Source: Gammaproteobacteria bacterium Ga0077554
Lineage (GTDB): Bacteria; Pseudomonadota; Gammaproteobacteria; Ga0077554; Ga007554
Length of the DNA: 64,000 nucleotides
Direction: 5' to 3'
Assembly: GCA_001464585.1 (NCBI GenBank)
Contig: LNFF01000031.1
Coordinates: 1,094-65,093 of the forward strand
Positions 1,890-58,163 of the stretch are shown in pieces. A program made the position numbers and the translations under genes. The notes beneath the pieces are model-generated. The model had not been told where the DNA came from, searched no databases, and saw only the letters and a list, made by a program, of their open reading frames with translations. The number at the start of each line of letters is the position of its first letter. Position 1 is the first letter of the stretch.

Positions 1890-3762
1890 GTGCAAAATAA
1901 CAACGTATCCGCAAATAGCCTGGTATTTATCGTACTGACTGCGGGACTCATATTGTCGGTATTTGCATGGACTACTGCGACAAACGCTATTCAACGTGAA
2001 GAGCGCCTTGCCTTTCAGGGAGACGCCAACGACATCACGCGCCCACTGATCCGGCGGCTTGACACCTATACTGAAATACTCCATGGCGTACAAGGCCTGT
2101 TTACCGCCAGTCAAAATGTTGGCGCCGATGAATGGCAAAGTTACATTGACGCATTGCAGTTGCAAACACGTTACCCCGGCATACAGACCATGAGTTTTGC
2201 CCGGCGAGTGCCGCATGATCAAAAAGAAAAATACGAACAGCACATACGCCGTATCACCCCTCCCGGAAACCGCAATGATTACTTTGTTGTTGAATACGTA
2301 ACCCCCTACACCGGTAACGAAACCTCACGGGGATCCGAGCTGGGCCGCGAGCCAGTACGCCGTGCAGCACTTGAACAAGCACGTGATACCAACGAGGCCA
2401 GTTTCACAGGCCACATCACTTTAGCTCACGGCCCACCCAACAAGCCGCGCTCCGTCTCTTTTTACCAGTGTATCGCACCGTGTTGCCGCATAACACCGTA
2501 GAACAGCGTCGTGCTGCCTTAATGGGCTTTGTCAACATGGGATTTTACATCAATAGCTTAATGGATGGCACCGACTCCAGCGCCTCGCTCCAGGGCGTTG
2601 ATATTGAAATGTTCGACACGCCAGCCCGCTTGCAGGAAAACCAGGAGCCGCACACAGATATTGCCACCCTCCCCGACACCACGCTGCTATATGACAGGGA
2701 TAACAGCCGCGGCTCGCCGCAAAAACCCGGATCACATCACCACTTCCTGACCACGCTTGAATTTGCCGGACGCCACTGGGCACTCAGCTTTAAAAGCCTG
2801 CCGGGTTACCGAACCAGCGAAGAAAATACGCCACAGATTGTATTCGGTGTTGGCGTGGTCATTACGCTGCTACTGTCCGGCATGATATGGTCACTGGCAA
2901 GTTCACGTGCGCGCGGCTGGAATCTGGCACAGGAAATTACGGCAGAATTACGCAACAGTGAACAACATACCCGCGCCATTATCAGCAATGCACTAGACGG
3001 CATCAGAACCATAAATGAACAAGGCATGATCGCATCTCTCAATCCCGCTGCGGAACGTATGTTTGGCTATACTGAGGAAGGGATAATTGGGAAACACATT
3101 AATATATTAATACCTGATACCTGCCATAATCAGAAAAATAATTTTCTGATTATGCAGACTGACCTGAAAAAAATTGGCAATCATGGCCTGCCGGGGCAAC
3201 GTAAAGACGGCGCCACCTTCCCCCTCGAGTTTGGCATCAGTGAAACAACTCTGGATAACCAGCGCATGTTTATTGGCACGACCCATGATATCACCGAACG
3301 TAAAACGCCTGGAGAATGAATTTGTATCCACGGTGAGCCATGAATTAAGGACACCACTGACGTCTATTCGCGGGGCGTTAGGATTAATCGTGGGCGGCAT
3401 CGCGGGGGAAGTGCCGGAACAGGCGAAAAAACTCGCGGAGATCGCTTGCAATAACAGTGAGCGCCTGGTACGCCTGATTAATGATATTCTGGATATCGAG
3501 AAAATGGAATCCGGAAAAACGGTATTTGGCTGCCATCCGACAGAGATCATCCCGCTTGTGGAAGAGGCGCTGCAAGCTAACCAGGTGTATGCTGAACAAT
3601 ACCAGGTTCGTTTTGTATTAGAAAGCGGGATCCGGACTGGGACTCAGCATCACTAAAGCCATTATAGAAAACCATGGCGGAAAAATTGGCTTTGCAAGTC
3701 ACGCGGGACGAGGCGCCACATTTTATCTTGACATGCCGGAATGGCAAGCACTGGCCGGCTAA
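1890..3762 (+). pseudogene. CHASE-TM-PAS-HisKA-HATPase sensor histidine kinase, disrupted by two frameshifts and an internal deletion
   Basis: The domain order is readable across four frames. CHASE runs 1890 to about 2430 and continues in another frame as ...LRLFLPVYRTVLPHNTVEQRRAALMGFV. PAS ends ...HDITERK at an A4 run (3302-3305). HisKA (RLENEFVSTVSHELRTPL) is in a third frame. At about 3625-3630, ...QYQVRFVLES joins directly to the G2 box GSGLGLSITKAIIENHGGKIGF in a fourth frame, so the N and G1 boxes are missing. Confidence 0.65.
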
Positions 3763-5820: not shown

Positions 5821-5948
5821 CTTCGACAGGCTCAGGGCGGATGGGAATATTAAAAACCTTGTCATTCCGGGCACAGCGAGGAATCTTATGCGGGATCCCG
5901 CACTTAAAAACCGTTCGCGCTGAGCCTGTCGAAGCAGGAACGGTTTTT
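5821..5948. repeat. Composite palindromic repeat that also forms a bidirectional terminator
   Basis: A perfect 15-bp inverted repeat, cttcgacaggctcag (5821-5835) and ctgagcctgtcgaag (5921-5935), encloses a GTCAT-type unit gtcattccgggcacagcgaggaatc (5861-5885) and the palindrome gcgggatcccgc. The stem aaaaaccgttc/gaacggtttttt (5906-5916 and 5938-5948) carries A/T runs on both sides. Confidence 0.7.
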
Positions 5949-10480: not shown

Positions 10481-10648
10481 GTATTTATTCCCTCTATGCT
10501 GACTGAAAAGCTTTAACAAGCTTCGCCATTATTTAACAAGCTTCGCTTAAGACTATGCAACTTATCACACTAACGCAATAGGCCATGCCATGATATATTT
10601 GGAATATATTTGCTATGCTATGGACAACTAAAGCCAAGGAGTGTTGCC

Positions 10649-11137
10649 GTGACAAAAAAAGAAATTAATCTGGCGCAGTTTCTCAGCCATCACCACCTGT
10701 GTGCATCACTCACGGTTACAGAAGTAGAGAATCTGCTTAACTACCTGGAATTTGTGGAGTATAAAAAAGATGATGTCATTGCGGACATCGGTGATGTCGG
10801 CGAAGCCCTGTATTTTGTCGTAAAAGGTGAGGTGGCCCTGATACACGATGACGGTAATCAGACGCTTGAAGTCGGGCGTATGAAAGAAGGTGAATTAATG
10901 GGCGAGATGTCATTTTTTGACCGCCAACCGCGCATGTTGCGCGTGGTCGCCACCACCGACGAAACCCAGCTTCTGAAACTGCCGCGCGTCATGTACCAGC
11001 GCCTGCGCATAGAACGTCCTTATGTGGCGGTAAATCTGCTGGAACATGCTATTATTAGCCTCGACCATCTGGTGCGCCACGTCAGCGAAGCGGAAGCCAG
11101 CCTGACGCGCTATATTTTCGGGCCAGGTAAGCGTTAG
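10649..11137 (+). CDS. Cyclic-nucleotide-binding domain protein
   Basis: The cNMP-binding fold motifs are present (...GDVGEALYFVVKGEV...GELMGEMSFFD...PRMLRVVA). A GTG at 10649 is preceded by AAGGAG. The TAG stop (11135-11137) lies at the boundary of the 141-bp repeat element. Confidence 0.7.
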   Translation: MTKKEINLAQFLSHHHLCASLTVTEVENLLNYLEFVEYKKDDVIADIGDVGEALYFVVKGEVALIHDDGNQTLEVGRMKEGELMGEMSFFDRQPRMLRVVATTDETQLLKLPRVMYQRLRIERPYVAVNLLEHAIISLDHLVRHVSEAEASLTRYIFGPGKR

Positions 11138-11280
11138 AACCTGTTTAGAATCTCGATCAAGGGATGCAGCGCAAGGCGGAAACGGGCGAAAAAGCGGAGT
11201 GTACACGCAGTACATGAGCATTTTGAGCTTGTTTCCAACGCCGCGATGCGCCCTTCAGCGAGATTCTAAACAGGTTCTTA
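11134..11280. repeat. MITE-like palindromic element, copy A (141-bp core flanked by TTA)
   Basis: The core is 11137-11277. Its 19-bp terminal inverted repeat is perfect (gaacctgtttagaatctcg / cgagattctaaacaggttc). TTA is present on both flanks. It is clearly homologous along its whole length to 18312-18458. Confidence 0.85.
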
Positions 11281-11359
11281 GAATTCAACGCCTGGAAAAT
11301 TAATGTATCCCCTCTCCTCAACCCCCTCCCGCTGTGCAGGAGGGGGGGTAAAAATCACT

Positions 11360-12043
11360 ATGCTCAACCCCCTTTACCGACGCGCCGTCTTCACACTGGG
11401 CGCACCTACAGTTGCCTATCTACCCCCGGACAGCGGCTATGAAGTGGCTTTCGCTGGACGCTCCAACGCCGGAAAATCCAGCGCCATCAATAGCATAACT
11501 GGACAAAAAGCCTTGGCGCGGGTCAGCAAAACCCCGGGACGTACCCAGCATATCAATTTTTTTGAGCTGGAAGCCAGCAGTCTGGATTCCACATTAAATC
11601 AGGGTCGTCGGCTGGTTGATCTGCCCGGTTATGGCTATGCCAAAGTAGCGCACAGCGTTAAAGAACACTGGCAGGCCGCGCTCGAAGAATATCTTAATAC
11701 CCGCCAATCACTGCAAGGGCTGGTGATTGTCATGGACATTCGCCACCCGCTCACCCCGTTTGATCAGCAAATGCTGGACACCTGCCAACATGCCCGTCTA
11801 CCCACGCATATTTTGCTGACCAAAGCCGACAAACTCAGCAAAGGCGCGGCGGGCGCCACGCTGCAACAGGTGCGTCGGACGCTTACCGAACGCTACCATG
11901 AAGACGATGCGCCGCTGCCCACGACACAGCTTTTCTCCGCCCTGCGCGGTATCGGTATTGAAGATGTGCATCGGAAATTAGATGAATGGTTAAAACTGAA
12001 AACGGCGATTAAATCCGACGCCGTGACAATAGCAACTGATTGA
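11360..12043 (+). CDS. engB: Ribosome-biogenesis GTPase EngB (YihA/YsxC)
   Basis: G1 motif GRSNAGKSS, then [13 protein letters not shown]3 DLPGYG and G4 LTKADK. The start was moved to ATG 11360. Confidence 0.9.
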
Positions 12044-12053
12044 TTTAAAGCCA

Positions 12054-12180
12054 TAAAAAAAGCCCCGGCACCAAAAAGGGGGAAAGCGCCGGGGCATAAA
12101 ACACCCGGCTTGGGGAAACCGGGTGGTAAAAAATTCTGTCCCGGGAGGGATAGGACAGAACAGCGCGAAAATCTCGCAAC
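12054..12180 (-). ncRNA. Candidate small RNA, copy 1 (four hairpins, C-rich loops, intrinsic terminator)
   Basis: Read on the minus strand, there is a 5' hairpin gcgagattttcgc. Next come hairpin ctgtcc-tatCCCTCCcg-ggacag, hairpin cacccgg-tttCCCCaag-ccgggtg and terminator gccccggc-gctttCCCCCtttttggt-gccggggc followed by T8. Confidence 0.6.
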
Positions 12181-12312
12181 CTATACCTGAGACGCCAGGC
12201 TTTCCGTAAAGTTCACGGCAAACACCAGAATTTTTATTGAATGGCCTGATTTGTGCAGGTCGGCAATAGAGACTATATAAAACCCATACGGTTCAAATAG
12301 CTGGGAGGGCAT

Positions 12313-12441
12313 AAAAAAATCCCGGCCTTCATAAAGGGGGAGAAGGCCGGGACAAAGAGCACCCGGTTTGGGGAAACCGGGTGCAAGGGGTTTCCGTCCC
12401 GGGAGGGGGTGGGACGGATAAGTGTGAAAAATCACACTATA
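12313..12441 (-). ncRNA. Candidate small RNA, copy 2 (same architecture as copy 1)
   Basis: Read on the minus strand, there is a 5' hairpin agtgtgatttttcacact. Next come ccgtccc-aCCCCCTCC-gggacgg, gcacccgg-tttCCCCaaa-ccgggtgc and terminator tcccggcc-ttCTCCCCCtttatgaa-ggccggga followed by T7. The stem sequences differ from copy 1 but the pairing is kept. Confidence 0.6.
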
Positions 12442-12490
12442 CTTAGTTAATGGGGATGACGATCTTCAACTTCAAGGGTACAAAATTTCT

Positions 12491-12520
12491 AATTTTAACC
12501 CCGCTACTGCATAAGCGGGG
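12491..12520 (-). terminator. Hairpin immediately after the polA stop codon
   Basis: On the minus strand, ccccgc-ttatgcagta-gcgggg is followed by ttaaaatt, which is only a weak U-tract. Confidence 0.45.
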
Positions 12521-12521
12521 A

Positions 12522-15368
12522 TTAATGCGCTTCGTCCCAATTATTTCCAATACCAATATCCACCACCAAAGGTACGGCTAAATTAGCGGCACACCCCATG
12601 CATTCTCTGATGCTGATCACGGCGCGATCAAGCACTCCCTCGGCCACTTCAAACACCAGTTCATCATGCACCTGCATGATCATGCGCATTTCAGTGCCGC
12701 CGTGGGAAACGGCTGTAGAATTACGCGCAATCATCCCATCTGTCTTGAGCATGGCAAGTTTGATTATATCCGCCGCCGTGCCTTGCATGGGCGCGTTGAT
12801 GGCGGCACGCTCGGCATATTGGCGGCGCTGGCCATTGCGTGACTTGATGTCCGGCAAATACAGGCGTCGACCGAACAATGTTTCAACATAACCACGCTCT
12901 GCGGTTTGCGCGCGCGTGGCATCCATAAAAATCTTTACGCCGGGGTAACGTGCAAAGTAACGGTTCATGTATTCCTGTGCGCTGCTGCGATCCACATCCA
13001 GTTGCCGCGCCAGGCCAAAGGCAGACATGCCATAAATCAGACCAAAATTAATGGCCTTGGCGCTGCGGCGTTGATCGCTGCTCACCTGATCAACCGCCAC
13101 ACCAAAAATTTCTGCGGCAGTGGCGCGATGAATATCATCGCCACGCGCAAACGCGCTCAACAACCCGGCGTCTTGCGACAGGTGCGCCATGATGCGCAAT
13201 TCAATTTGCGAATAGTCGGCGGCGACAATTTTATATCCCGGTGGCGCGATAAACGCCTGTCGTATGCGCCGCCCTTCGGCGCTGCGAATCGGAATGTTCT
13301 GCAAATTAGGATTCGAGGAAGACAAGCGCCCAGTGGCGGCCACCGCCTGGTGATACGAGGTGTGTACACGACCGGTGCGCGGATCAATCTGTGCGGGTAA
13401 TTTATCAGTATAGGTTGATTTCAATTTGCTGAGCGTGCGCGACTCCAGAATCAATTTTGGCAAGGGGTGGACGAACGCCAATTCCTGCAAAACTGATTCG
13501 CCGGTGGAGGGTTGGCCAGTGGGCGTTTTCTCGATTACAGGCAAGCCCAGCTTATCAAACAAAATCATCTGGATCTGCTTGGGCGAATCAAGATTAAACG
13601 GCTGCCCTGCAACCACATAAGCTTGCTCCTGAAGGCTCAATATTTGCCGCGCCAGTTCATCGCTTTGACGATGCAACATCTGCGCGTCCACCAGCACGCC
13701 ATTGCGCTCGATGCGTGATAACACCGGCACCAGTGGCATTTCGATGTCATCAAACAATTTCTGCAAGCCCGGCTCGGCGCGGAGGCGCGGCCAGAAGACG
13801 TGATGCAAACGCAGCGTAATATCGGCATCTTCGCAGGCATAGGGCGACGCCTGCTCCAGCGCTATTTGATTAAAGGTGATCTGACGCGCGCCCTTGCCGG
13901 CGATGTCCTCAAAATGCACGGTCTTGTAGTCGAGGTGCGCCAACGCCAGCGTGTCCATGTCATGACGCGAGCCAGTGCTGTTGAGCACATAGGATTCGAG
14001 CATGGTGTCATAGCGTATGCCCGCCAGGGTAATCGCGTAATTGGCAAGCACGCTCATGTCGTATTTCAAGTTCTGCCCGAGCTTCGACCGCATGGCATCT
14101 TCCAGCAGCGGTTTAAGTTGCGCCAGCACTGCGTCACGCGATAACTGATCGGGTGCGCCGGGATAATCATGCGCCAGCGGCACATACGCCGCTTCGCCCG
14201 GCTGCACCGCAAACGACACGCCGACAATTTCGGCCTGCATGTAATCCAGTGAGGTGGTTTCGGTATCAAAGGCAAATAATTCAGCTTGCGCAAGACGCGC
14301 CAACCAGTGGTCGAGTTGCGCCTGCGTGAGCACGGTATCATAGCGGCTGGAAAGTTGCTCCTGCATTTCCAGCACTTCCGCCATCCGTGGCGGTCGAATT
14401 GCAAGCGGAACGGGATCTGTGGCGAGAACTGCAACGGGGACATCACGGGCGATGTCCCCCTGTTGCACAACATCAACACCCTGTTCCTCCTGCCCGACAA
14501 GTTGCGCTGTATCTGCAAGCTGCGCCAACCAGGTCTTGAACTCCATGCGCTTATACCATTCGCGCAAGGTACTTACGTCCGGCGGTTGGCGATGCAGATC
14601 AAGCGGCGCCACCGCCAGTGGCACATCGCAACGAATCGTGGCGAGTTGCCGCGACAATGGCAGCAGGTGCATATTCTCGCGCAGGCTTTCACCGACTTTG
14701 CCACTGATCTGATCCGCATGCGCCACAAGATTGTCCAGCGTGCCATATTCCTGCAACCATTTAGCGGCGGTCTTGGGGCCAACTTTGGGAATGCCAGGAA
14801 TATTGTCTGAGGTATCACCCACCAGCGCCAGGTAATCAATGATCTGCGTCGGCGACACGCCAAATTTTTCAACTACCCCCGGCACATCCAGCGCGGTGTT
14901 GCTCATGGTGTTAATGAGTCTGACGTGGCTGTCAACCAGTTGCGCCATGTCCTTGTCGCCTGTTGAAATCACGGTATGCAATCCGGCCGCCGTGGCTTGC
15001 GTTGCCAACGTGCCAATCACATCATCGGCCTCGACGCCGTCCACCATCAATAACGGCAATCCCATCGCCACGACAATGGCATGCAGCGGCTCGATCTGGC
15101 TGCGCAAATCATCCGGCATGGGCGGGCGGTGCGCTTTATATTGCGCAAACAAATCATCACGAAATGTTTTGCCTTTGGCATCAAACACCACGGCAATCCG
15201 GTCTGGCTGATAATCTGCCAGCAGCTTACGCAGCATATTGGCGACGCCGTACACTGCGCCAGTCGGCTCACCGCGCGAATTAACCAGTGGCGGCAACGCA
15301 TGGAAGGCGCGATACAGATAAGATGAGCCGTCGATCAGCAGCAACGGCTTGGGAGAAGTTTCAGTCAT
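12522..15368 (-). CDS. polA: DNA polymerase I
   Basis: It has the 5'-3' exonuclease N-terminus (LLLIDGSSYLYRAFHA), a 3'-5' exonuclease domain (FAFDTETTSLD) and polymerase motifs (DYSQIELRIMAH, QVHDELVFE). ATG 15368 is preferred over the TTG at 15380. Confidence 0.97.
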   Translation of the reverse strand: MTETSPKPLLLIDGSSYLYRAFHALPPLVNSRGEPTGAVYGVANMLRKLLADYQPDRIAVVFDAKGKTFRDDLFAQYKAHRPPMPDDLRSQIEPLHAIVVAMGLPLLMVDGVEADDVIGTLATQATAAGLHTVISTGDKDMAQLVDSHVRLINTMSNTALDVPGVVEKFGVSPTQIIDYLALVGDTSDNIPGIPKVGPKTAAKWLQEYGTLDNLVAHADQISGKVGESLRENMHLLPLSRQLATIRCDVPLAVAPLDLHRQPPDVSTLREWYKRMEFKTWLAQLADTAQLVGQEEQGVDVVQQGDIARDVPVAVLATDPVPLAIRPPRMAEVLEMQEQLSSRYDTVLTQAQLDHWLARLAQAELFAFDTETTSLDYMQAEIVGVSFAVQPGEAAYVPLAHDYPGAPDQLSRDAVLAQLKPLLEDAMRSKLGQNLKYDMSVLANYAITLAGIRYDTMLESYVLNSTGSRHDMDTLALAHLDYKTVHFEDIAGKGARQITFNQIALEQASPYACEDADITLRLHHVFWPRLRAEPGLQKLFDDIEMPLVPVLSRIERNGVLVDAQMLHRQSDELARQILSLQEQAYVVAGQPFNLDSPKQIQMILFDKLGLPVIEKTPTGQPSTGESVLQELAFVHPLPKLILESRTLSKLKSTYTDKLPAQIDPRTGRVHTSYHQAVAATGRLSSSNPNLQNIPIRSAEGRRIRQAFIAPPGYKIVAADYSQIELRIMAHLSQDAGLLSAFARGDDIHRATAAEIFGVAVDQVSSDQRRSAKAINFGLIYGMSAFGLARQLDVDRSSAQEYMNRYFARYPGVKIFMDATRAQTAERGYVETLFGRRLYLPDIKSRNGQRRQYAERAAINAPMQGTAADIIKLAMLKTDGMIARNSTAVSHGGTEMRMIMQVHDELVFEVAEGVLDRAVISIRECMGCAANLAVPLVVDIGIGNNWDEAH

Positions 15369-15600
15369 GGGTATTCGCAAATCTAATAATTAAAGGATCG
15401 ACAACCAGAAGCAGGTAGCTCCAGGCAAGGGTATCACGGATGCCAGTGGCACCGTAATGCACAACGAGCACAATGCCAGTAACCACCGCCTATGCCGCGC
15501 CGTTTTTTTGGTTTATCATGGGATGAACCGTGCCGATACTATACTAGAAGCCTGTCCACCTACGTGCCCACCATCACTTAACATTGGCAACACACCACTT

Positions 15601-16326
15601 ATGAATGCAGAAGAAAGATCGGTTCACCCCAGTTTCCAGAGCATTAATGACGCCGCGTTGACGCGCGAGTCGTGGAAGATTTTTCAGATCATGGCAGAAT
15701 TTGTGGAAGGCTTTGAACGCCTGTCGCAAATCAAACCCTCCGTCAGCATCTTCGGTTCGGCGCGCACGCCAGTGGATCACCCCTATTATAAACTCGCGGA
15801 AGACATTGGGCTGATGTTGTCAAATGCGGGGTTCAGCGTGGTGAGTGGTGGTGGGCCAGGCATTATGGAAGCGGCCAATAAAGGCGCGTTTGCGGGTAAA
15901 TCGCCCAGTATTGGCCTGAACATTGTGCTGCCGCATGAACAAGTCACCAATCCATACCAGAACATTTCTTTGAATTTCAGGCACTTTTTTTCACGAAAAG
16001 TAATGTTTGTGAAATATGCCTCAGCTTATGTAGTGTTACCGGGCGGATTTGGCACGCTCGACGAGCTGGCCGAAATTCTGACATTGGTGCAAACGCATAA
16101 AACCCGGCAGATCCCGATTATTCTGGTGCATAAGCCCTTTTGGGAAGGCTTGCTGGCGTGGTTTCAAAACACGCTGGTGATGGAACACGTTATCAGCCCT
16201 GGCGACATGAATCTGATGCAAATTGTGGATACCCCGCAAGAAGTGGTTGACGCAATTTTCAACCACTATGAGCATCGCGGCTTTGAACCCTCGGCAGATG
16301 AAAAAGCCACGCTGCTGGATCTCTAA
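15601..16326 (+). CDS. LOG/TIGR00730-family Rossmann-fold nucleotide-binding protein
   Basis: The GGGPGIMEAANKGA and PGGFGTLDEL motifs are present. The start was moved to ATG 15601. Confidence 0.8.
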   Translation: MNAEERSVHPSFQSINDAALTRESWKIFQIMAEFVEGFERLSQIKPSVSIFGSARTPVDHPYYKLAEDIGLMLSNAGFSVVSGGGPGIMEAANKGAFAGKSPSIGLNIVLPHEQVTNPYQNISLNFRHFFSRKVMFVKYASAYVVLPGGFGTLDELAEILTLVQTHKTRQIPIILVHKPFWEGLLAWFQNTLVMEHVISPGDMNLMQIVDTPQEVVDAIFNHYEHRGFEPSADEKATLLDL

Positions 16327-16353
16327 TCTAAACGGCCATTGGAGTCAACGACC

Positions 16354-16704
16354 ATGCGTTACATTGTAATTATTCTGGCATCGTTTCTCACCCCGGGTTT
16401 CGCGGTCGCCGCCGATGTTGCGGCGCCGGTCGATGCCGCAGCGCCGGCCGATCTGCCGCCCCCACCCACGGACAGCCTGGACGGCGAGACTCCAGAACCC
16501 GAGGTGCGCATTATCCGCCGACCGCAGGAAACCGTGGAAGAATACCGGGTGGGCGGCGCGCTCTACATGATAAAAGTCACCCCCAAACAGGGTGTCGCCT
16601 ATTATCTGGTGGATACCGATGGCGATGGTAACCTTGAAACCCAGCACAATGCCCTGGAGCCGCGCATGGCGATCCCCGGCTGGGTCATATTGCGCTGGAA
16701 GTAA
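16354..16704 (+). CDS. DUF2782-like small secreted protein
   Basis: It has a signal peptide and a conserved core (VRIIRRPQETVEEYRVGGALYMIKVTPKQGVAYYLVDTDGDG). It sits between polA and thrB, as in other proteobacteria (from memory). Confidence 0.65.
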   Translation: MRYIVIILASFLTPGFAVAADVAAPVDAAAPADLPPPPTDSLDGETPEPEVRIIRRPQETVEEYRVGGALYMIKVTPKQGVAYYLVDTDGDGNLETQHNALEPRMAIPGWVILRWK

Positions 16705-16765
16705 CTTACGTAATCATCACCCATAGTTTAAAATATCAGGCATATCCCACTAAAAAAGCCCCCAC

Positions 16766-17725
16766 ATGTCTGTCTACACGCGCATTGAGCGCAATGATCT
16801 TGAAGAGTTTCTGCACCATTATCCGCTCGGTACGCTGATAAACTTCGAGGGAATCCGCGCCGGCATTGAAAACACCAATTATTTCGTCACAACAACTACG
16901 GCTGGCGCACCTCCCGCGCAGTTTGTGTTAACCCTGTTTGAACAGTTGAAGTATGATGAACTCCCCTATTTTCTTGACTTGATGGCTTTTTTCGCTGAGC
17001 GTGGCATCCCCAGCGCGCATCCCCTCGCCGATCACCAGCAGCATTATCTACGCATATTACACGGCAAGCCCGCTGCCCTGGTGCAACGCTTGAACGGTGG
17101 GAGCACAGAATATCCCACCCCCGCACAGTGCCACGCTCTGGGTAACGCCTTGGGACGCATGCATGTAGTGGGGCAGGCTTACCCGGCACAGCGTGCCAAT
17201 ACCCGTGGACTTGCGTGGTACCAAAAAACCATGAGCAACGTGTTACCACGTTTAACTACATCAGACGCCGCCCTGCTCCAGGAAGAAGTGCGCTTTCAAA
17301 CGGCGTTTCACGCCACCCCGGCCGCAAACGCCTTGCCACGCGGGGTGATTCATGCTGATTTATTTCGTGACAATGCCTTGTTTGTGGGAGACACCCTCAC
17401 GGGCATTATCGACTTTTACTACGCCTGCAACGACGTGCTGCTATACGATGTGGCAGTTACGGTAAATGACTGGTGCAGCCAGCCTGATGGCACTTTGAAT
17501 GACGCTCTCACCCCCACGCTGCTGCAGGCTTACCAGCAGCAGCGCCCCCTTGGCACCGCCGAACAGGACGCCTGGCCCGTGATGTTACGCGCTGCCGCGT
17601 TGCGGTTTTGGCTGTCGCGGCTACATGATTTACACTTCCCCCGCACCGGGGAAATTACCCATACCAAGGATCCTGAGGTATTCAAACACATTCTTGTACA
17701 AAGAAAGCACAGGACAACTTTATGA
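16766..17725 (+). CDS. thrB: Homoserine kinase, ThrB type II (aminoglycoside-phosphotransferase fold)
   Basis: MSVYTRIERNDLEEFLHHYPLGTL...GIENTNYFVTT... and the catalytic VIHADLFRDN are characteristic. Confidence 0.85.
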   Translation: MSVYTRIERNDLEEFLHHYPLGTLINFEGIRAGIENTNYFVTTTTAGAPPAQFVLTLFEQLKYDELPYFLDLMAFFAERGIPSAHPLADHQQHYLRILHGKPAALVQRLNGGSTEYPTPAQCHALGNALGRMHVVGQAYPAQRANTRGLAWYQKTMSNVLPRLTTSDAALLQEEVRFQTAFHATPAANALPRGVIHADLFRDNALFVGDTLTGIIDFYYACNDVLLYDVAVTVNDWCSQPDGTLNDALTPTLLQAYQQQRPLGTAEQDAWPVMLRAAALRFWLSRLHDLHFPRTGEITHTKDPEVFKHILVQRKHRTTL

Positions 17726-17797
17726 AACATAGCTATAGAAAGTGATAGAAATTTGATGGATTAACGCTAAGTTATTGGTGTCATACTGAATTCTGCG

Positions 17798-17832
17798 TTA
17801 TGCACAAAATCTGTGGATAACTCTGTGGAAAG
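17798..17832. promoter_or_regulatory. Cluster of three DnaA-box-like 9-mers
   Basis: TTATGCACA (17798-17806) fits TTATNCACA. TGTGGATAA (17812-17820) is the perfect reverse complement of TTATCCACA. TGTGGAAAG (17824-17832) matches at 7 of 9 positions. All three lie within 35 bp of a non-coding stretch that looks AT-rich by eye. Confidence 0.45.
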
Positions 17833-18001
17833 TTTGGGGTCACAGGCTGTAAACGGCTATTACAGTAGTGTTACAGCCGCTTTGGACAAAAAACGATCTA
17901 AAATAATATCATTATTAAAACAATAAGTTAGGACACATAACGAAACCCTGTCAATTATCAGGCGGGGTGATGCCCCTTAAACCCCGGAGCCTGCGTGTAT
18001 T

Positions 18002-18994
18002 GTGCATAAGAAAGCGCATGACCCTCACCGTCAAAGCGGAAAAACGGCTGTCCCGCCAAACCATTACTCCAATCATGACACGGGCTGTCACCCGATTCAC
18101 CCCCGGAGCCGTTATCCGATTGTGGATGCCGCACGGGGCGCAGCTATTGTGCTGATGTTCGTGTATCATTTCATGTTTGATTTACGCTATTACAACGTGG
18201 TGGCGATTGATTTTAATAATGACCCTGTATGGTTAGGATTACGTACGCTGATTGTGGGTCTGTTTTTAGGGGTGATGGGCGTCAGCCTGCACCTGGCCAC
18301 AGCCAGTGGCCTTAGAAACTGTTCACGATCTCGATCAAGGGATGCAGCGCAAGGCAAAAGTGTCCGAAAAAGCGGAGTATACACACAGTATATGAGCATT
18401 TTGAGGACACTTTTAACGCCGCGATGCGCCCTTCAGCGAGATCGTGAGCAGTTTCTTAATCAACGCGCGTTTGTGCGACGGCTATTACAGGTGGTGGGAT
18501 GTGCGGCGCTGGTAAGCATCTCCAGTTACATGATGTTCCCGAAAAGTATGATCTTTTTTGGTATCCTGCATTTTATTGCTGCCGCCAGTGTGCTGGGATT
18601 ACTATTTTACCGCTGGTTCTGGGTCAATTTAGCCATGGGCGTGGCGCTGATTGTGGTGGGGCTGACTGTGCAGCACCCATGGTTTGATCAACCCGGCTGG
18701 CAATGGATAGGGTTAATGACACATAAACCCCTAACCGAAGATTATGTTCCTCTGCTGCCCTGGTTTGGGGTGGTATTATTAGGTCTTTTTGTGGGCAAAT
18801 GGATTTTCTCCACGCCGCCAGTTGCCGGACCCTTTACCGAATGGGCCGGGTCATTGGGCAAAAGCCTGGTGCAATGGCAAGGAAAATCCCGTTTATCCCG
18901 CCTGCTGATCTTTGGTGGAAGGCATAGCCTGCCGATTTATATGCTGCATCAACCGGTATTTTTTGCGATTTTGTATCTGTTTTTAGGGACATAG
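18002..18994 (+). CDS. DUF1624-like (heparan-alpha-glucosaminide N-acetyltransferase-like) membrane protein carrying an in-frame repeat insertion
   Basis: It has the ...VDAARGAAIVLMFVYHFMFDL... motif and multiple TM helices. A hydrophilic 48-codon segment (RNCSRSRSRDAAQGK...QRDREQFL) coincides exactly with MITE copy B. The start codon is uncertain. Confidence 0.6.
   Translation: MHKKAHDPHRQSGKTAVPPNHYSNHDTGCHPIHPRSRYPIVDAARGAAIVLMFVYHFMFDLRYYNVVAIDFNNDPVWLGLRTLIVGLFLGVMGVSLHLATASGLRNCSRSRSRDAAQGKSVRKSGVYTQYMSILRTLLTPRCALQRDREQFLNQRAFVRRLLQVVGCAALVSISSYMMFPKSMIFFGILHFIAAASVLGLLFYRWFWVNLAMGVALIVVGLTVQHPWFDQPGWQWIGLMTHKPLTEDYVPLLPWFGVVLLGLFVGKWIFSTPPVAGPFTEWAGSLGKSLVQWQGKSRLSRLLIFGGRHSLPIYMLHQPVFFAILYLFLGT
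18312..18458. repeat. MITE-like palindromic element, copy B (141-bp core flanked by TTA), inside a CDS
   Basis: The core is 18315-18455. The TIRs are gaaactgttcacgatctcg / cgagatcgtgagcagtttc, with one mismatch. TTA is present on both flanks. Core plus one TTA is 144 bp, or 48 codons, and is open in the host frame. Confidence 0.85.
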
Positions 18995-20055: not shown

Positions 20056-20080
20056 TTTAAAGCTCCTGCGGATTTTCCAT

Positions 20081-20149
20081 GTCATTCCGCGCATAGCGAG
20101 GAATCGTGGGCAAGATCCCTCTCTTCGCCTGAAATGATAAGGGCGATGA
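20081..20149. repeat. Two GTCAT-type palindromic units in the gspC-gspD spacer
   Basis: gtcattccgcgcatagcgaggaatc (20081-20105) is a near copy of 5861-5885. It is followed by gatccctctcttcgcc...gggcgatgac (about 20113-20149), a longer variant in the opposite orientation. Confidence 0.65.
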
Positions 20150-20198: not shown

Positions 20199-22358
20199 AT
20201 GGCACACATCAAAAAACGGGATAACATATTTATGCCTAACATGCGCCGGGCAGGATGCCCAAGTGCGGTGAGCGCAGGGAAGAGCGGCAGCGAAGGGTTC
20301 CGCAAGAACCTCCTGCGGGCAAGCTGTTTGGCCGCATTGTTGACAATTTCACCTTACACGCAGGCGCAGCCGGTTACGTTGAATTTAAAAGATGCCGACA
20401 TTGCGGCGGTGATTGCCACAGTATCAGACATTACTGGCAAAAACTTTATTGTCGATCAGCGCGTCAAAGGCAAGGTAACGATTATTTCCGCGCGCCCGAT
20501 GAGCAAGGAAGAAGTCTATCAAGTGTTTTTATCGCTGCTGGAAGTGAATGGCTTTGCAGCGGTGCCCAGCGGCAAAGTCATCAAAATCATACCTGACGTC
20601 AACGCCAAACAAAGCAGCACACCCGTTGCAACCGACGATCAGCCCGGCAAGGGTGATGAGGTAGTAACGCGCGTCATTCATGTCAAAAATATTTCAGCGA
20701 CACAACTGGTGCCCGTGTTGCGGCCGCTTTCACCGCAACAAGGCCATATGGTGGCCTACCCGGGCACCAATGCGCTGATTATTTCTGATCGCGCTTCAAA
20801 TATCGAACGGCTGACAAAGATCATTGAGCGTATTGATCAGCCCTCGGATACCGCCGACGTAGAAGTAATCGCGCTGCGTCACGCCGCCGCCGCTGAGGTG
20901 GTGCGCATTCTCAATGCGCTGGATCAGGAAGGGCGCAAAAATGATCCGGCCAGCGCCTCGGGCATTACGGATCGTCCGGTATTGATTGCCGATGAGCGCA
21001 CCAATAGCCTGCTGGTGGGCGGTGGACAGAGTGGCCGGTTGCGCCTGCGCGCGCTGATCTCGCATTTGGATACACCACTGCAAACCAGCGGTAACATTCG
21101 CGTGGTATATTTACGCTATGCCAAAGCCAAAGATCTCGTACCAGTACTCACGGGTGTAGCCAGCCAGGTGCAAGACAAATCCAAGCCGGGCGGCGGCGCT
21201 GTGCCGGGCGGTGCTCCGATGAGCATGAGTACGCCCGGCAGTGGCATTAATATTCAAGCTGACGAAAGCATCAATGCACTGGTGATTACCGCACCGCAAG
21301 ATGTGTTTCAGTCGTTGCAATCAGTGATCAGCCAGCTTGATGTGCGTCGCGCACAAGTGCTGGTCGAGGCGGTCATCGTTGAAGTTACCTCCAGCCGCGC
21401 TGCAGAGTTGGGTATCCAATGGGGCACCTTTGACCAATCTACAGGCAGCAGCAAACCAATAGGTATCACCAACTTCACTAATGGCGGCGCGGGATCCAGC
21501 ATTGCAGCCATTGGCGCCGCTATCGCCAATAACACGGCTCCCGCAATTGGTGCAGGTTTGACATTTGGGCTAGGCAAATTCAACAGTGGCGGCTCAAGCT
21601 TCGCCGCCTTGATTCGCGCTCTGGAAGCCGACGGGACTTCCAACATTTTGTCTACTCCTACCTTGCTCACCATGGATAATACTGAGGCAGAAATAGTCGT
21701 GGGGCAAAACGTACCATTCATTACCGGTTCGTTCACCTCACCTGGCGCGACTGGCGGCGCTGCGACCAATCCATTTCAAACAATTGAACGTAAAAATGTC
21801 GGTATTACGCTGAAAATCAAGCCGCAAATCAATGAAGGCAACGCCATCAGGATGGAGATCGAGCAAAAGGTCGACAGCCTCTCTCCCAGTACGGTAGCCG
21901 GTGCCTCTGACTTGATTACCAATACACGCTCAATTCGCACCAATGTCATGGTGGACGATGGCAAGGTGATTGCCTTGGGTGGATTAATTACCGATGATCT
22001 GCGGGAAAGTGTGCAGAAAATTCCCTTGCTCGGTGACTTACCCCTGCTTGGCAGTTTATTCCGTTACAAGAGAAACAGTAAAGACAAAACCAATCTGATG
22101 GTATTTTTGCATCCCGTGATTATGCGTGACGGTGAACTGGCGGAGCGCATGACACATGGTAAATACGAGTTCATGCGCGCGCGGCAAATCGAAGCCAGAG
22201 AAAAAGGCATGGGGATATTACGTAATGAAGAAGCCCCCATGCTGCCTACCATGCAGGACATAATGAAGCTGCCACCGCCCTTCGGCCCATCTTCCGCAGG
22301 CGGCAATGCTGAGCCTGCTGCCAGTCCCGCAGTCGACCCTGCGGTCACTCCACAGTGA
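20199..22358 (+). CDS. gspD: Type II secretion system secretin GspD
   Basis: It has N0-N3 domains (PVTLNLKDADIAAVIATVSDITGKNFIV...) and a secretin domain (…IALGGLITD…IPLLGDLPLLGSLFRYK). The true start is probably downstream (ATG 20241 or an in-frame GTG), because the 5' end is repeat-derived. The signal peptide ends ...PYTQAQ. Confidence 0.9.
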   Translation: MAHIKKRDNIFMPNMRRAGCPSAVSAGKSGSEGFRKNLLRASCLAALLTISPYTQAQPVTLNLKDADIAAVIATVSDITGKNFIVDQRVKGKVTIISARPMSKEEVYQVFLSLLEVNGFAAVPSGKVIKIIPDVNAKQSSTPVATDDQPGKGDEVVTRVIHVKNISATQLVPVLRPLSPQQGHMVAYPGTNALIISDRASNIERLTKIIERIDQPSDTADVEVIALRHAAAAEVVRILNALDQEGRKNDPASASGITDRPVLIADERTNSLLVGGGQSGRLRLRALISHLDTPLQTSGNIRVVYLRYAKAKDLVPVLTGVASQVQDKSKPGGGAVPGGAPMSMSTPGSGINIQADESINALVITAPQDVFQSLQSVISQLDVRRAQVLVEAVIVEVTSSRAAELGIQWGTFDQSTGSSKPIGITNFTNGGAGSSIAAIGAAIANNTAPAIGAGLTFGLGKFNSGGSSFAALIRALEADGTSNILSTPTLLTMDNTEAEIVVGQNVPFITGSFTSPGATGGAATNPFQTIERKNVGITLKIKPQINEGNAIRMEIEQKVDSLSPSTVAGASDLITNTRSIRTNVMVDDGKVIALGGLITDDLRESVQKIPLLGDLPLLGSLFRYKRNSKDKTNLMVFLHPVIMRDGELAERMTHGKYEFMRARQIEAREKGMGILRNEEAPMLPTMQDIMKLPPPFGPSSAGGNAEPAASPAVDPAVTPQ
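20244..20282 (+). repeat. 38-nt core repeat, copy 1 (cgccgggcaggatgcccaagtgcggtgagcgcagggaag)
   Basis: It is nearly identical to the reverse complement of 42033-42071 and partly to 43184-43261. It overlaps the first codons of the longest gspD ORF. Confidence 0.7.
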
Positions 22359-39137: not shown

Positions 39138-39314
39138 ATACAGACGACCGCCACGTATGGCGGAAGGTAGAGCAACGCAGGAGCAGTTTCCGGATGTGAA
39201 AAAACTGCTGATATTCCGACAGCCCTATCACTGACTACTGCGCGACTTTAATTAAAGGGCACCTCTATAAATTCGATCAAGCCACGATGACGGCGAAACT
39301 TACAATCACCGCTT

Positions 39315-41985: not shown

Positions 41986-42189
41986 GTCAAACATGGATAA
42001 CTTGAACAATTGGCCGCTTGGCGGTTCCTACGCTTCCTTGCGCTCACCGCACTTGGGCATCCTGCCCGGCGTAGGCGAGATGCCATGCGAGGCGTCGAAT
42101 GCGCGGTGTGGCAAGCCACATAAGCATTCGACAATGACGCAGGGCGCTCGCATGCAAGATGGACAATGGTCAAGTTATCCATGTTTGAC
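41986..42189. repeat. 204-bp MITE-like element with 19-bp perfect terminal inverted repeats
   Basis: gtcaaacatggataacttg (41986-42004) pairs with caagttatccatgtttgac (42171-42189). The interior folds into long hairpins (cctacgc...gcgtagg; catgcgag...ctcgcatg; tcgaatgc...gcattcga) and contains the 38-nt core repeat at 42033-42071. Confidence 0.75.
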
Positions 42190-57968: not shown

Positions 57969-58034
57969 AGTGGAACTGTTTTTATGCAGACAAGGTCTCA
58001 CGCCACGATGGGTGCACGCGCCCTTTGTATGATT

Positions 58035-58110
58035 GTCATTTCGAATGCAATGAGAAATCCTGGCTTTCAATCTCAAAAAATAAAGGATTTCTCATTGCAT
58101 TCGAAATGAC
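58035..58110. repeat. Inverted pair of GTCAT-type units
   Basis: gtcatttcgaatgcaatgagaaatcc (58035-58060) and its exact reverse complement (58085-58110) are separated by 24 nt. Confidence 0.8.
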
Positions 58111-58163
58111 ATTGATCATCAAAAGATCTTATCAACAACCCCAAGATATGGCATAGTAACCTC

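Follow-up and report, generated by a model that had tools for sequence, protein, structure and literature searches.

A probable IS5-family miniature element, recently inserted beside one gene and in frame within another in a gammaproteobacterial genome

Results

Two copies of a palindromic element in the window

The element described here is a short palindromic repeat, most probably a MITE (miniature inverted-repeat transposable element), which occurs twice in a 64,000-nt stretch of DNA from Gammaproteobacteria bacterium Ga0077554 (contig LNFF01000031.1, positions 1,094 to 65,093), the whole of which is called the window below. Copy A lies between engB and a plus-strand gene for a cyclic nucleoside monophosphate (cNMP)-binding protein (10610-11137; PF00027, E 8e-17), and copy B lies inside a 330-codon open reading frame (ORF) on the plus strand (18002-18994) for a membrane acyltransferase-family protein of the HGSNAT_cat type, formerly DUF1624 (PF07786, E 9e-60). 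A repeat finder joined the two in a single 150-nt family (11131-11280 and 18309-18458) with 83% identity over 150 nt and a blastn E-value of 1e-38. They are the only copies in the window, have the same orientation and are 7.2 kb apart.

Copy A occupies positions 11137-11277, with the core strand GCGAAAAAGCGGAG... on the plus strand. It is flanked by the trinucleotide TTA at 11134-11136 and 11278-11280, and its left terminal inverted repeat, GAACCTGTTTAGAATCTCG (11137-11155), is complementary to the right one (11259-11277) at 19 of 19 positions. Copy B occupies positions 18315-18455 in the sense orientation of its host gene, between TTA at 18312-18314 and TTA at 18456-18458; its left terminal repeat, GAAACTGTTCACGATCTCG (18315-18333), is complementary to the right one (18437-18455) at 18 of 19 positions, and the single mismatch is a U-G pair on the plus strand. 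Direct reading of both copies bears out the 141-nt core, the 19-nt terminal inverted repeats and the TTA on both flanks that an earlier note on this DNA had described. The alignments likewise contain the paired differences between the copies that the note had listed, both at the ends (TTTAGA/TCTAAA versus TTCACG/CGTGA) and further in (GGAAACGGGC/GCTTGTTTCC versus AAAAGTGTCC/GGACACTTTT). Both copies fold into the same full-length 141-nt hairpin, at -78.1 kcal/mol for copy A and -77.1 kcal/mol for copy B (z about -11.5), and none of 200 shuffled sequences folded as well. The element is small and non-coding, without an ORF of its own.

Effect of the insertions on the two genes

The stop codon of the cNMP-binding gene, TAG at 11135-11137, spans the junction between duplication and element: it consists of the TA of the left TTA and of the first G of copy A. 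It had been proposed that copy A supplies this stop. The position of the codon across the junction is as described, but the stop was not newly supplied, since the orthologues end at the same place: the ancestral gene already ended in GPGKR-TAG, the orthologue in the congener G004 has CGT TAG at this position, and all orthologues terminate in GPGKR or GPGKK. Comparison of the sequences indicates that copy A landed on a TTA overlapping the pre-existing stop (T-TA-G), that the first G of the element restores TAG and that the protein is unchanged.

Copy B adds 144 nt (141 nt plus one TTA), or 48 codons, to the ORF at 18002-18994 and leaves it open, as the earlier note had stated. The reading frame survives because the added length (141 + 3) is divisible by three and one sense frame of copy B is open. 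The added residues, RNCSRSRSRDAAQGKSVRKSGVYTQYMSILRTLLTPRCALQRDREQFL, stand between ...TASGL and NQRAFVRR, include the peptide SGVYTQYMSILR and comprise 11 Lys/Arg against 3 Asp/Glu. The hydropathy profile agrees with the proposed location between membrane-spanning regions, as hydrophobic segments at residues ~75-102 and ~160-178, the predicted transmembrane segments TM2 and TM3, flank the insert. Because the insert is basic, the loop that contains it is likely cytoplasmic according to the positive-inside rule, and the insert appears to be tolerated there. The orthologues from four genomes of the same genus and seven of the same family match residues ~1-105 and ~152-330 as adjacent blocks, and the 48 residues are missing from all 11 of them. 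These orthologues have 255-284 codons without the insert, and the true start of the gene is probably downstream of 18002. The ORF is otherwise intact up to the C-terminus of the orthologues, with 89% identity to the protein of the congener G003 and no further lesions.

Empty sites and age of the insertions

An empty site was found for each of the two insertions, as the earlier note had proposed to look for. At the site of copy B, G003 has GGCC-TTA-ATCAACG and the window GGCC-TTA-[141 nt]-TTA-ATCAACG. At the site of copy A, G004 (95% protein identity) has AAGCG-TTA-GAATTC and the window AAGCG-TTA-[141 nt]-TTA-GAATTC. Since these two independent empty sites in relatives each hold a single TTA, the TTA was duplicated upon insertion, which settles the choice left between a 3-bp target duplication and a strict target preference in favour of the former. 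Both insertions are missing from the 11 relatives named above, and both are recent: the congeners carry empty sites, so the insertions postdate the split from them.

Copies in the source genome

The source assembly (2.9 Mb, 44 contigs, 53% G+C) contains many more copies, with 48 loci found by blastn and 42 by a covariance model, almost all of them 141-143 nt long. The ~42 copies fall into four subfamilies which have the central ~105 nt in common and unrelated ends. Subfamily 1, to which copies A and B belong, has the terminal repeat GAACCTGTTTAGAATCTCG and a 3-bp target duplication (TTA/TAA). The terminal repeats of subfamilies 2, 3 and 4 are GGGTGCCTCTATAAATTCG, GAGACCTCTGAGAAACTCG and TTCTACTGTGTCACAAAGCG, respectively, each with a 4-bp duplication. 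An exact TTA/TAA duplication is present in 7 of the 13 subfamily-1 copies of the source genome. When copies from this genome and from public contigs were pooled, exact 4-bp duplications were seen in 21 of 33 elements of subfamily 2, 3 of 4 of subfamily 3 and 6 of 8 of subfamily 4; an exact 3-bp duplication was seen in 8 of the 15 elements matching the subfamily-1 pattern, about four of these being subfamily-3 or similar GAGACC-ended elements. The window itself contains, besides copies A and B, a truncated remnant of subfamily 2: a solo left end (GGGCACCTCTATAAATTCGATCAAGCC...) on the plus strand at 39257-39295, of which ~35-40 nt are kept before the sequence diverges.

Copy B is the only one of the 42 copies that is clearly intragenic, that is, with real coding sequence on both sides of the copy within a long ORF. 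Of the six frames of the element, 1.1 are free of stops on average, compared with 0.7 in shuffled sequence. Six copies located in long open frames of relatives raised the possibility of recurrent in-frame insertion, which was rejected on inspection, as the frames were spurious or the copies lay upstream of the real start. The in-frame position of copy B is a rare accident, apparently tolerated, and does not reflect an adaptation to coding DNA on the part of the element.

Candidate partner insertion sequences

No transposase gene with matching ends is present in the window, in agreement with the earlier note; a matching IS5-family insertion sequence (IS) lies elsewhere in the genome. A Pfam DDE_Tnp_1 search of the genome, combined with inspection of the ends, led to two relevant ISs. 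The one on contig C5 (3975-4839; 865 bp) is flanked by TAA on both sides, encodes DUF4096 and DDE_Tnp_1 domains and belongs to the IS427/IS1031 type of the IS5 family. Over the first 17 nt, GAACCTATTCAATATCT, it agrees with subfamily-1 copies at 13-16 positions. A copy of this IS in G003, 97.8% identical and at a different site, shows orfA and orfB in their canonical arrangement, with an A7 slippery run; the C5 IS of the source genome lacks one T just before this run, which creates an in-frame TAA between orfA and orfB.

The second IS, on contig C24 (25207-26499; 1293 bp), has CTAA on both flanks and DUF772 and DDE_Tnp_1 domains and belongs to the IS5 group. Its end sequence, CAGGCTGTTGAAA, is identical to that of the terminal-repeat class which is commonest in the wider superfamily in other genomes (see below); no MITE with these ends was seen in the source genome. 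A scan for terminal-repeat pairs in the same genome yielded no full-length IS with the exact ends of copies A and B or of subfamilies 2-4, only the related elements on C5 and C24. A further IS of ~1.3 kb, outside the window on contig C12 (69500-70797), has the ends ACTACTGTCCGGAGATTTCC and GGTTCGAAT on both sides; its flanks resemble a tRNA T-arm, and the IS may have inserted into a tRNA gene or beside one.

A widespread superfamily

MITEs of 139-143 nt with a conserved ~105-nt hairpin form a large superfamily, in which the element is one branch. A 35-base core pattern, searched against a species-representative collection, matched at least 117 contigs from Beta- and Gammaproteobacteria and Desulfobacterota. 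The taxa include Nitrosomonadales, Gallionella, Usitatibacteraceae and Burkholderiales; Pseudomonas, Halopseudomonas, Cellvibrio, Endozoicomonas, Chromohalobacter, Cycloclasticus and Rahnella; and Chromatiales, Ectothiorhodospiraceae, Desulfobacterales, Desulfobulbaceae and one Desantisbacteria metagenome-assembled genome. All the matched elements are palindromic and ~139-147 nt long, with various ends. In the CAGGCTG class of ends an exact 4-bp repeat (e.g., CTAG, TTAA, TTAG, GTAA) flanks 13 of 23 elements, and a 2-, 3- or 5-bp repeat flanks none. A search of the literature with the core and end sequences as strings returned no relevant paper.

A covariance model (R1), built from 53 diverse members without enterobacterial sequences, gave 104.5 bits for copy A and 103.3 bits for copy B. 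It matched 25 copies in a Pseudomonas genome, two in Rahnella and four in one Escherichia coli strain, and at E <= 1e-5 it found at least one copy in 81 of 301 sampled Pseudomonadota genomes, representing 43 of 168 genera. In Pseudomonas sp. WN033, a superfamily copy (2878-3022 within L031:2779-3022) abuts a yybP-ykoY manganese riboswitch aptamer (48.8 bits, above threshold) and overlaps it by ~20 nt; this copy may sit in the expression platform of the riboswitch.

In E. coli K-12 MG1655 the R1 model matched six sites (2543663, 2689545, 2746322, 1007702, 1799007 and 3456354), five of them with E-values of 1.6e-10 to 7.6e-4 and one weakly (E 4.3). The GenBank annotation of K-12 lists six "RSA" repeats of 150/151 bp (PMC5172473, Table 1). 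Because the six R1 sites, at ~150 nt, equal the annotated RSA repeats in number and size, we take the latter as the E. coli branch; the RSA repeats are very probably superfamily members, an assignment based on size and copy number rather than on annotated coordinates, as the RefSeq record of K-12 is devoid of RSA features. To our knowledge, little has been published on the nature of the RSA repeats. They are palindromes of ~150 nt that share with the element its apical hairpin (GGAG-yGTAC-loop-GTACr-TGAG), its tandem G-A loops and the covariation of its stems, but differ in their terminal repeats, in being ~9 nt longer and in their diverged inner stems (GAGAAACC/GGATTTC versus GAAAAAGC/GCATTTT).

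One of the RSA-type copies, in E. coli 120899 (L151), separates the glnA stop from the GlnZ seed region, whereas K-12 has ordinary REP sequences there, further downstream; the glnA 3' untranslated region has thus been the target of different repeat elements in different E. coli lineages. A link to the REP insertion and RNase III cleavage of GlnZ in K-12 (bioRxiv 10.1101/2022.04.01.486790) was considered and rejected, the repeats in the K-12 glnA 3' untranslated region being ordinary REP sequences without a model match and only strain 120899 having an RSA-type copy there.

Covariation and strand asymmetry of the hairpin

That the long hairpin is being maintained, as the two window copies had suggested, holds for the superfamily: compensatory changes across 53 members exceed those in the controls (slid-partner and shuffle tests). 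In the alignment of these 53 sequences, in which the invariance of the central 42 nt is partly imposed by the search pattern, RNAalifold predicts 31 pairs, 17 of them with double compensatory changes. Paired cells amount to 94.9%, compared with 33-43% when the partners are slid, and double-change cells number 252, compared with 83 +/- 7 in shuffles, none of 500 of which reached the observed value. The stems covary, and the hairpin further has two tandem G-A internal loops, one fixed G-U pair and a variable loop of 5 nt. The copies of E. coli, which lie outside the selection by the search pattern, keep the GA/GA loops, the GGAG...TGAG motif and the G-U pair while their stems covary.

The two strands of the hairpin are not equivalent. 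There are 64 G-U and U-G cells against 12 A-C and C-A cells or, counted as column-types, 19 against 6. The top strand folds more stably in 51 of the 53 superfamily members and in 37 of 37 copies from the source genome, by a margin of 9-10 kcal/mol; with the centre replaced by a tetraloop, so that the arms alone are compared, it is still the more stable strand in 46 of 53. No orientation bias relative to co-directional flanking genes was seen (34 sense, 31 antisense), and scoring of copy A and its surroundings yielded neither promoter-like nor terminator-like sites.

Comparison with Rfam gave no match at the gathering threshold. There were only weak hits to sX9 (RF02228), a 75-nt small RNA (sRNA) of Xanthomonas seen on Northern blots (Schmidtke et al., 2012, PMC3300014): copy A scores 17.8 bits and an RSA copy of E. 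coli 31.7 bits, against a threshold of 44. Because of these scores the element is not a member of the curated sX9 family. The alignment of the sX9 model follows the bottom strand of the core, outward from the apical hairpin, but sX9 has been described as an sRNA, not as a transposon. According to a review, sX9 is among the sRNAs most frequently annotated in bacterial genomes (PMC9029176), and this fits a model that picks up a repeat family.

Discussion

An IS5-family MITE is the best explanation of both copies, and we hold it with high confidence. In the mechanism that we propose, an IS5-family DDE transposase of the IS427/IS1031 type would move the 141-nt non-autonomous element in trans, recognising its 17-19-nt terminal inverted repeats and cutting the target with a 3-nt stagger at TTA/TAA, which would duplicate the target. 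Terminal repeats are exchanged between subgroups of the IS5 family, with 3-bp duplications in the present branch and 4-bp, NTAN-like duplications in others. The hairpin would serve the propagation or persistence of the element itself, either by bringing both ends together or by being read as a single strand; this is the reading of its role that we prefer.

Mobilisation in trans is suggested by analogy with MITEPsy1 and ISPsy2 of Pseudomonas syringae, an IS5-family MITE with a 4-nt duplication (CTAG/YTAA) for which transposition has been shown (Bardaji et al., 2011, PMC3189936). MITEPsy1 shares with our element IS5-family ends and the duplication of a short, TA-centred target, and is the best mechanistic precedent; it differs in having a length of 100 nt instead of 141 and a 4-nt duplication, which leads to a frameshift when it lies inside a gene.

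Several observations weigh against this explanation. The IS on contig C5 matches both window copies at just 13 of 17 end positions, compared with 15-16 of 17 for other subfamily-1 copies, and in the source genome it may be defective or mis-assembled. The duplication is imperfect in 5 or 6 of the 13 subfamily-1 copies. A 2-bp TA duplication together with one asymmetric end base formally fits both empty sites too, although a symmetric 3-bp TTA duplication is the simpler reading. The genome holds no near-identical MITE copies, the best being 95-96% identical to A and 92-93% to B, and so gives no indication that the element is active at present. Simple cut-and-paste of double-stranded DNA does not account for the strand asymmetry of the hairpin. 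Finally, the HGSNAT_cat gene with its insert could be a recent, still-open pseudogene.

Under this last explanation copy B inactivated the gene, and the open frame belongs to a young pseudogene that has yet to decay. The recency of the insertion, which all congeners lack, would agree with this, a -77 kcal/mol hairpin and 48 additional residues in a polytopic membrane protein could be harmful, and an open frame by luck is plausible for an element with only one or two of them. Against these points stand the intactness of the ORF up to the C-terminus of the orthologues, the 89% identity to G003 and the lack of other lesions, as well as the location of the insert in an inter-helix loop with already basic flanks, a position often tolerant of insertions; we therefore regard inactivation as possible but doubtful. 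An origin of the pair by segmental duplication or gene conversion within the window, instead of transposition, is practically excluded. The window holds just two copies, which share one orientation at a distance of 7.2 kb, as such an event might leave them, but 42 copies are spread over many contigs of the genome, the boundaries are exact and carry target duplications, the corresponding sites in relatives are cleanly empty, and A and B have diverged by 17%, each being closer to copies elsewhere than to the other. Copy number, divergence and empty sites have thus already refuted this origin, and neither of the two outcomes that the earlier note had named as pointing to it was observed. It is also very improbable that the element is of the REP/REPIN type and moved by a RAYT (Y1) transposase via single-stranded DNA: the long hairpin, its strand-specific fold and GTAG-like motifs in the arms of some superfamily branches recall such elements, but target duplications of 3-4 bp and ends that match IS5-family DDE elements of the same genome are not properties of REP/RAYT systems.

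The main alternative to the IS5-family MITE concerns the conserved core, which might be the functional unit, as a structured RNA or as single-stranded DNA (an sRNA, a processing site or a protein-binding site), so that the transposon ends would be only a vehicle and the copies would persist through the function of the hairpin. Across phyla, conservation is higher in the core than in the ends, and the core is found with at least five terminal-repeat classes. It shows strong covariation and a strand-specific fold, its asymmetric internal loops (the tandem G-A pairs, the fixed G-U pair and GGAG/TGAG) are kept even in the RSA copies of E. coli, which are independent of the pattern, and the Northern-verified sX9 RNA aligns to its bottom strand. 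Set against this are the random orientation of the copies relative to flanking genes, the lack of a promoter-like or terminator-like site scored in or near copy A, the sX9 scores below threshold and the share that the search pattern has in the invariance of the centre; moreover, the insertions are lineage-specific and scattered, as those of selfish DNA would be. On balance we consider a functional core of this kind unlikely, and we retain the IS5-family MITE, with a hairpin that would act in its own propagation, as the preferred explanation.

A broader view may be offered tentatively, and we rate it as less probable than not. The superfamily would be essentially undescribed, and the module under selection in it would be the strand-specific ~105-nt hairpin, with the ends as interchangeable adaptors taken from IS5-family subgroups; either the transposition machinery or a host factor would read one strand of the hairpin, in the form of single-stranded DNA or of RNA, and the superfamily would include both the RSA repeats and the sX9 locus of Xanthomonas. 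If this were true, the reading of the hairpin on one strand would explain the fixed length of ~140 nt and the asymmetry. Why the core should be more conserved than the transposase-binding ends, and on one strand only, is a question that bears on the mobilisation of MITEs and on the fixed length of many of them.

Comparison with other palindromic repeats helps to delimit the element. The earlier note had likened copy B to the Rickettsia palindromic elements, which are inserted in ORFs as a rule (PMC10969869). Both are palindromic repeats of ~150 bp situated in frame in a protein-coding gene, to which they add a peptide segment, but the resemblance proved superficial, with 1 of 42 copies clearly intragenic here and an element that is not notably depleted of stops. 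The 127-bp ERIC or IRU sequences of enterobacteria are also imperfect palindromes with a conserved central hairpin, but are shorter and have different ends; ERIC is reported to duplicate TA and to have an orientation-dependent effect on mRNA stability (PMC2759123, PMC10969869). By eye, the centres of ERIC and of our element are similar (...AG-GAGCTTACAT-AAGTAAGTGA-C... and ...AGCGCAGTTTACA-loop-GTAAATGAGC...), and a segment AACGCAGC..ATG.CAAC is common to both. The R1 model aligns a whole ERIC copy with a score of no more than 13.3 bits (E 0.0035 in 1.3 kb), which lacks significance at the scale of a genome, so that a homology which is suggestive by eye is not claimed. The RU-3 repeat of Delihas was rejected as a member of the same family, RU-3 being a REP/BIME element.

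For the source genome, our work traces two oddities, an extra loop of 48 residues in a membrane acyltransferase and a palindrome next to a stop codon, to recent insertions of the same mobile element, and identifies its likely transposase. It provides a clean, dated case in which a MITE has survived in frame within a polytopic membrane protein and for which congeners hold the empty sites, and it connects the element with a very widespread group of IS5-type MITEs to which the long-unexplained RSA repeats of E. coli appear to belong.

Other repeats in the window

Two tandem units of ~100-150 nt (direct repeat D2, 78% identical) lie on the minus strand between engB and polA, at 12055-12203 and 12311-12427. 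They score below threshold against sRNA families with C-rich loops (anti-hemB, ErsA/Pseudomon-1, sX13, CcsR1 and ar14), and are probably two tandem sRNA genes convergent with engB. Short repeats were also seen at 5857-5905 and 20077-20125, at 58029-58116, and at 20244-20282 and 42033-42071. Among them are a 49-nt repeat with GTCATTCCG...CGAGGAATC, a palindrome with 33-nt arms and GTCATTTCGAATGCAATGAGAAATCC, and a 39-nt inverted pair, 97% complementary, the members of which are 21.7 kb apart.

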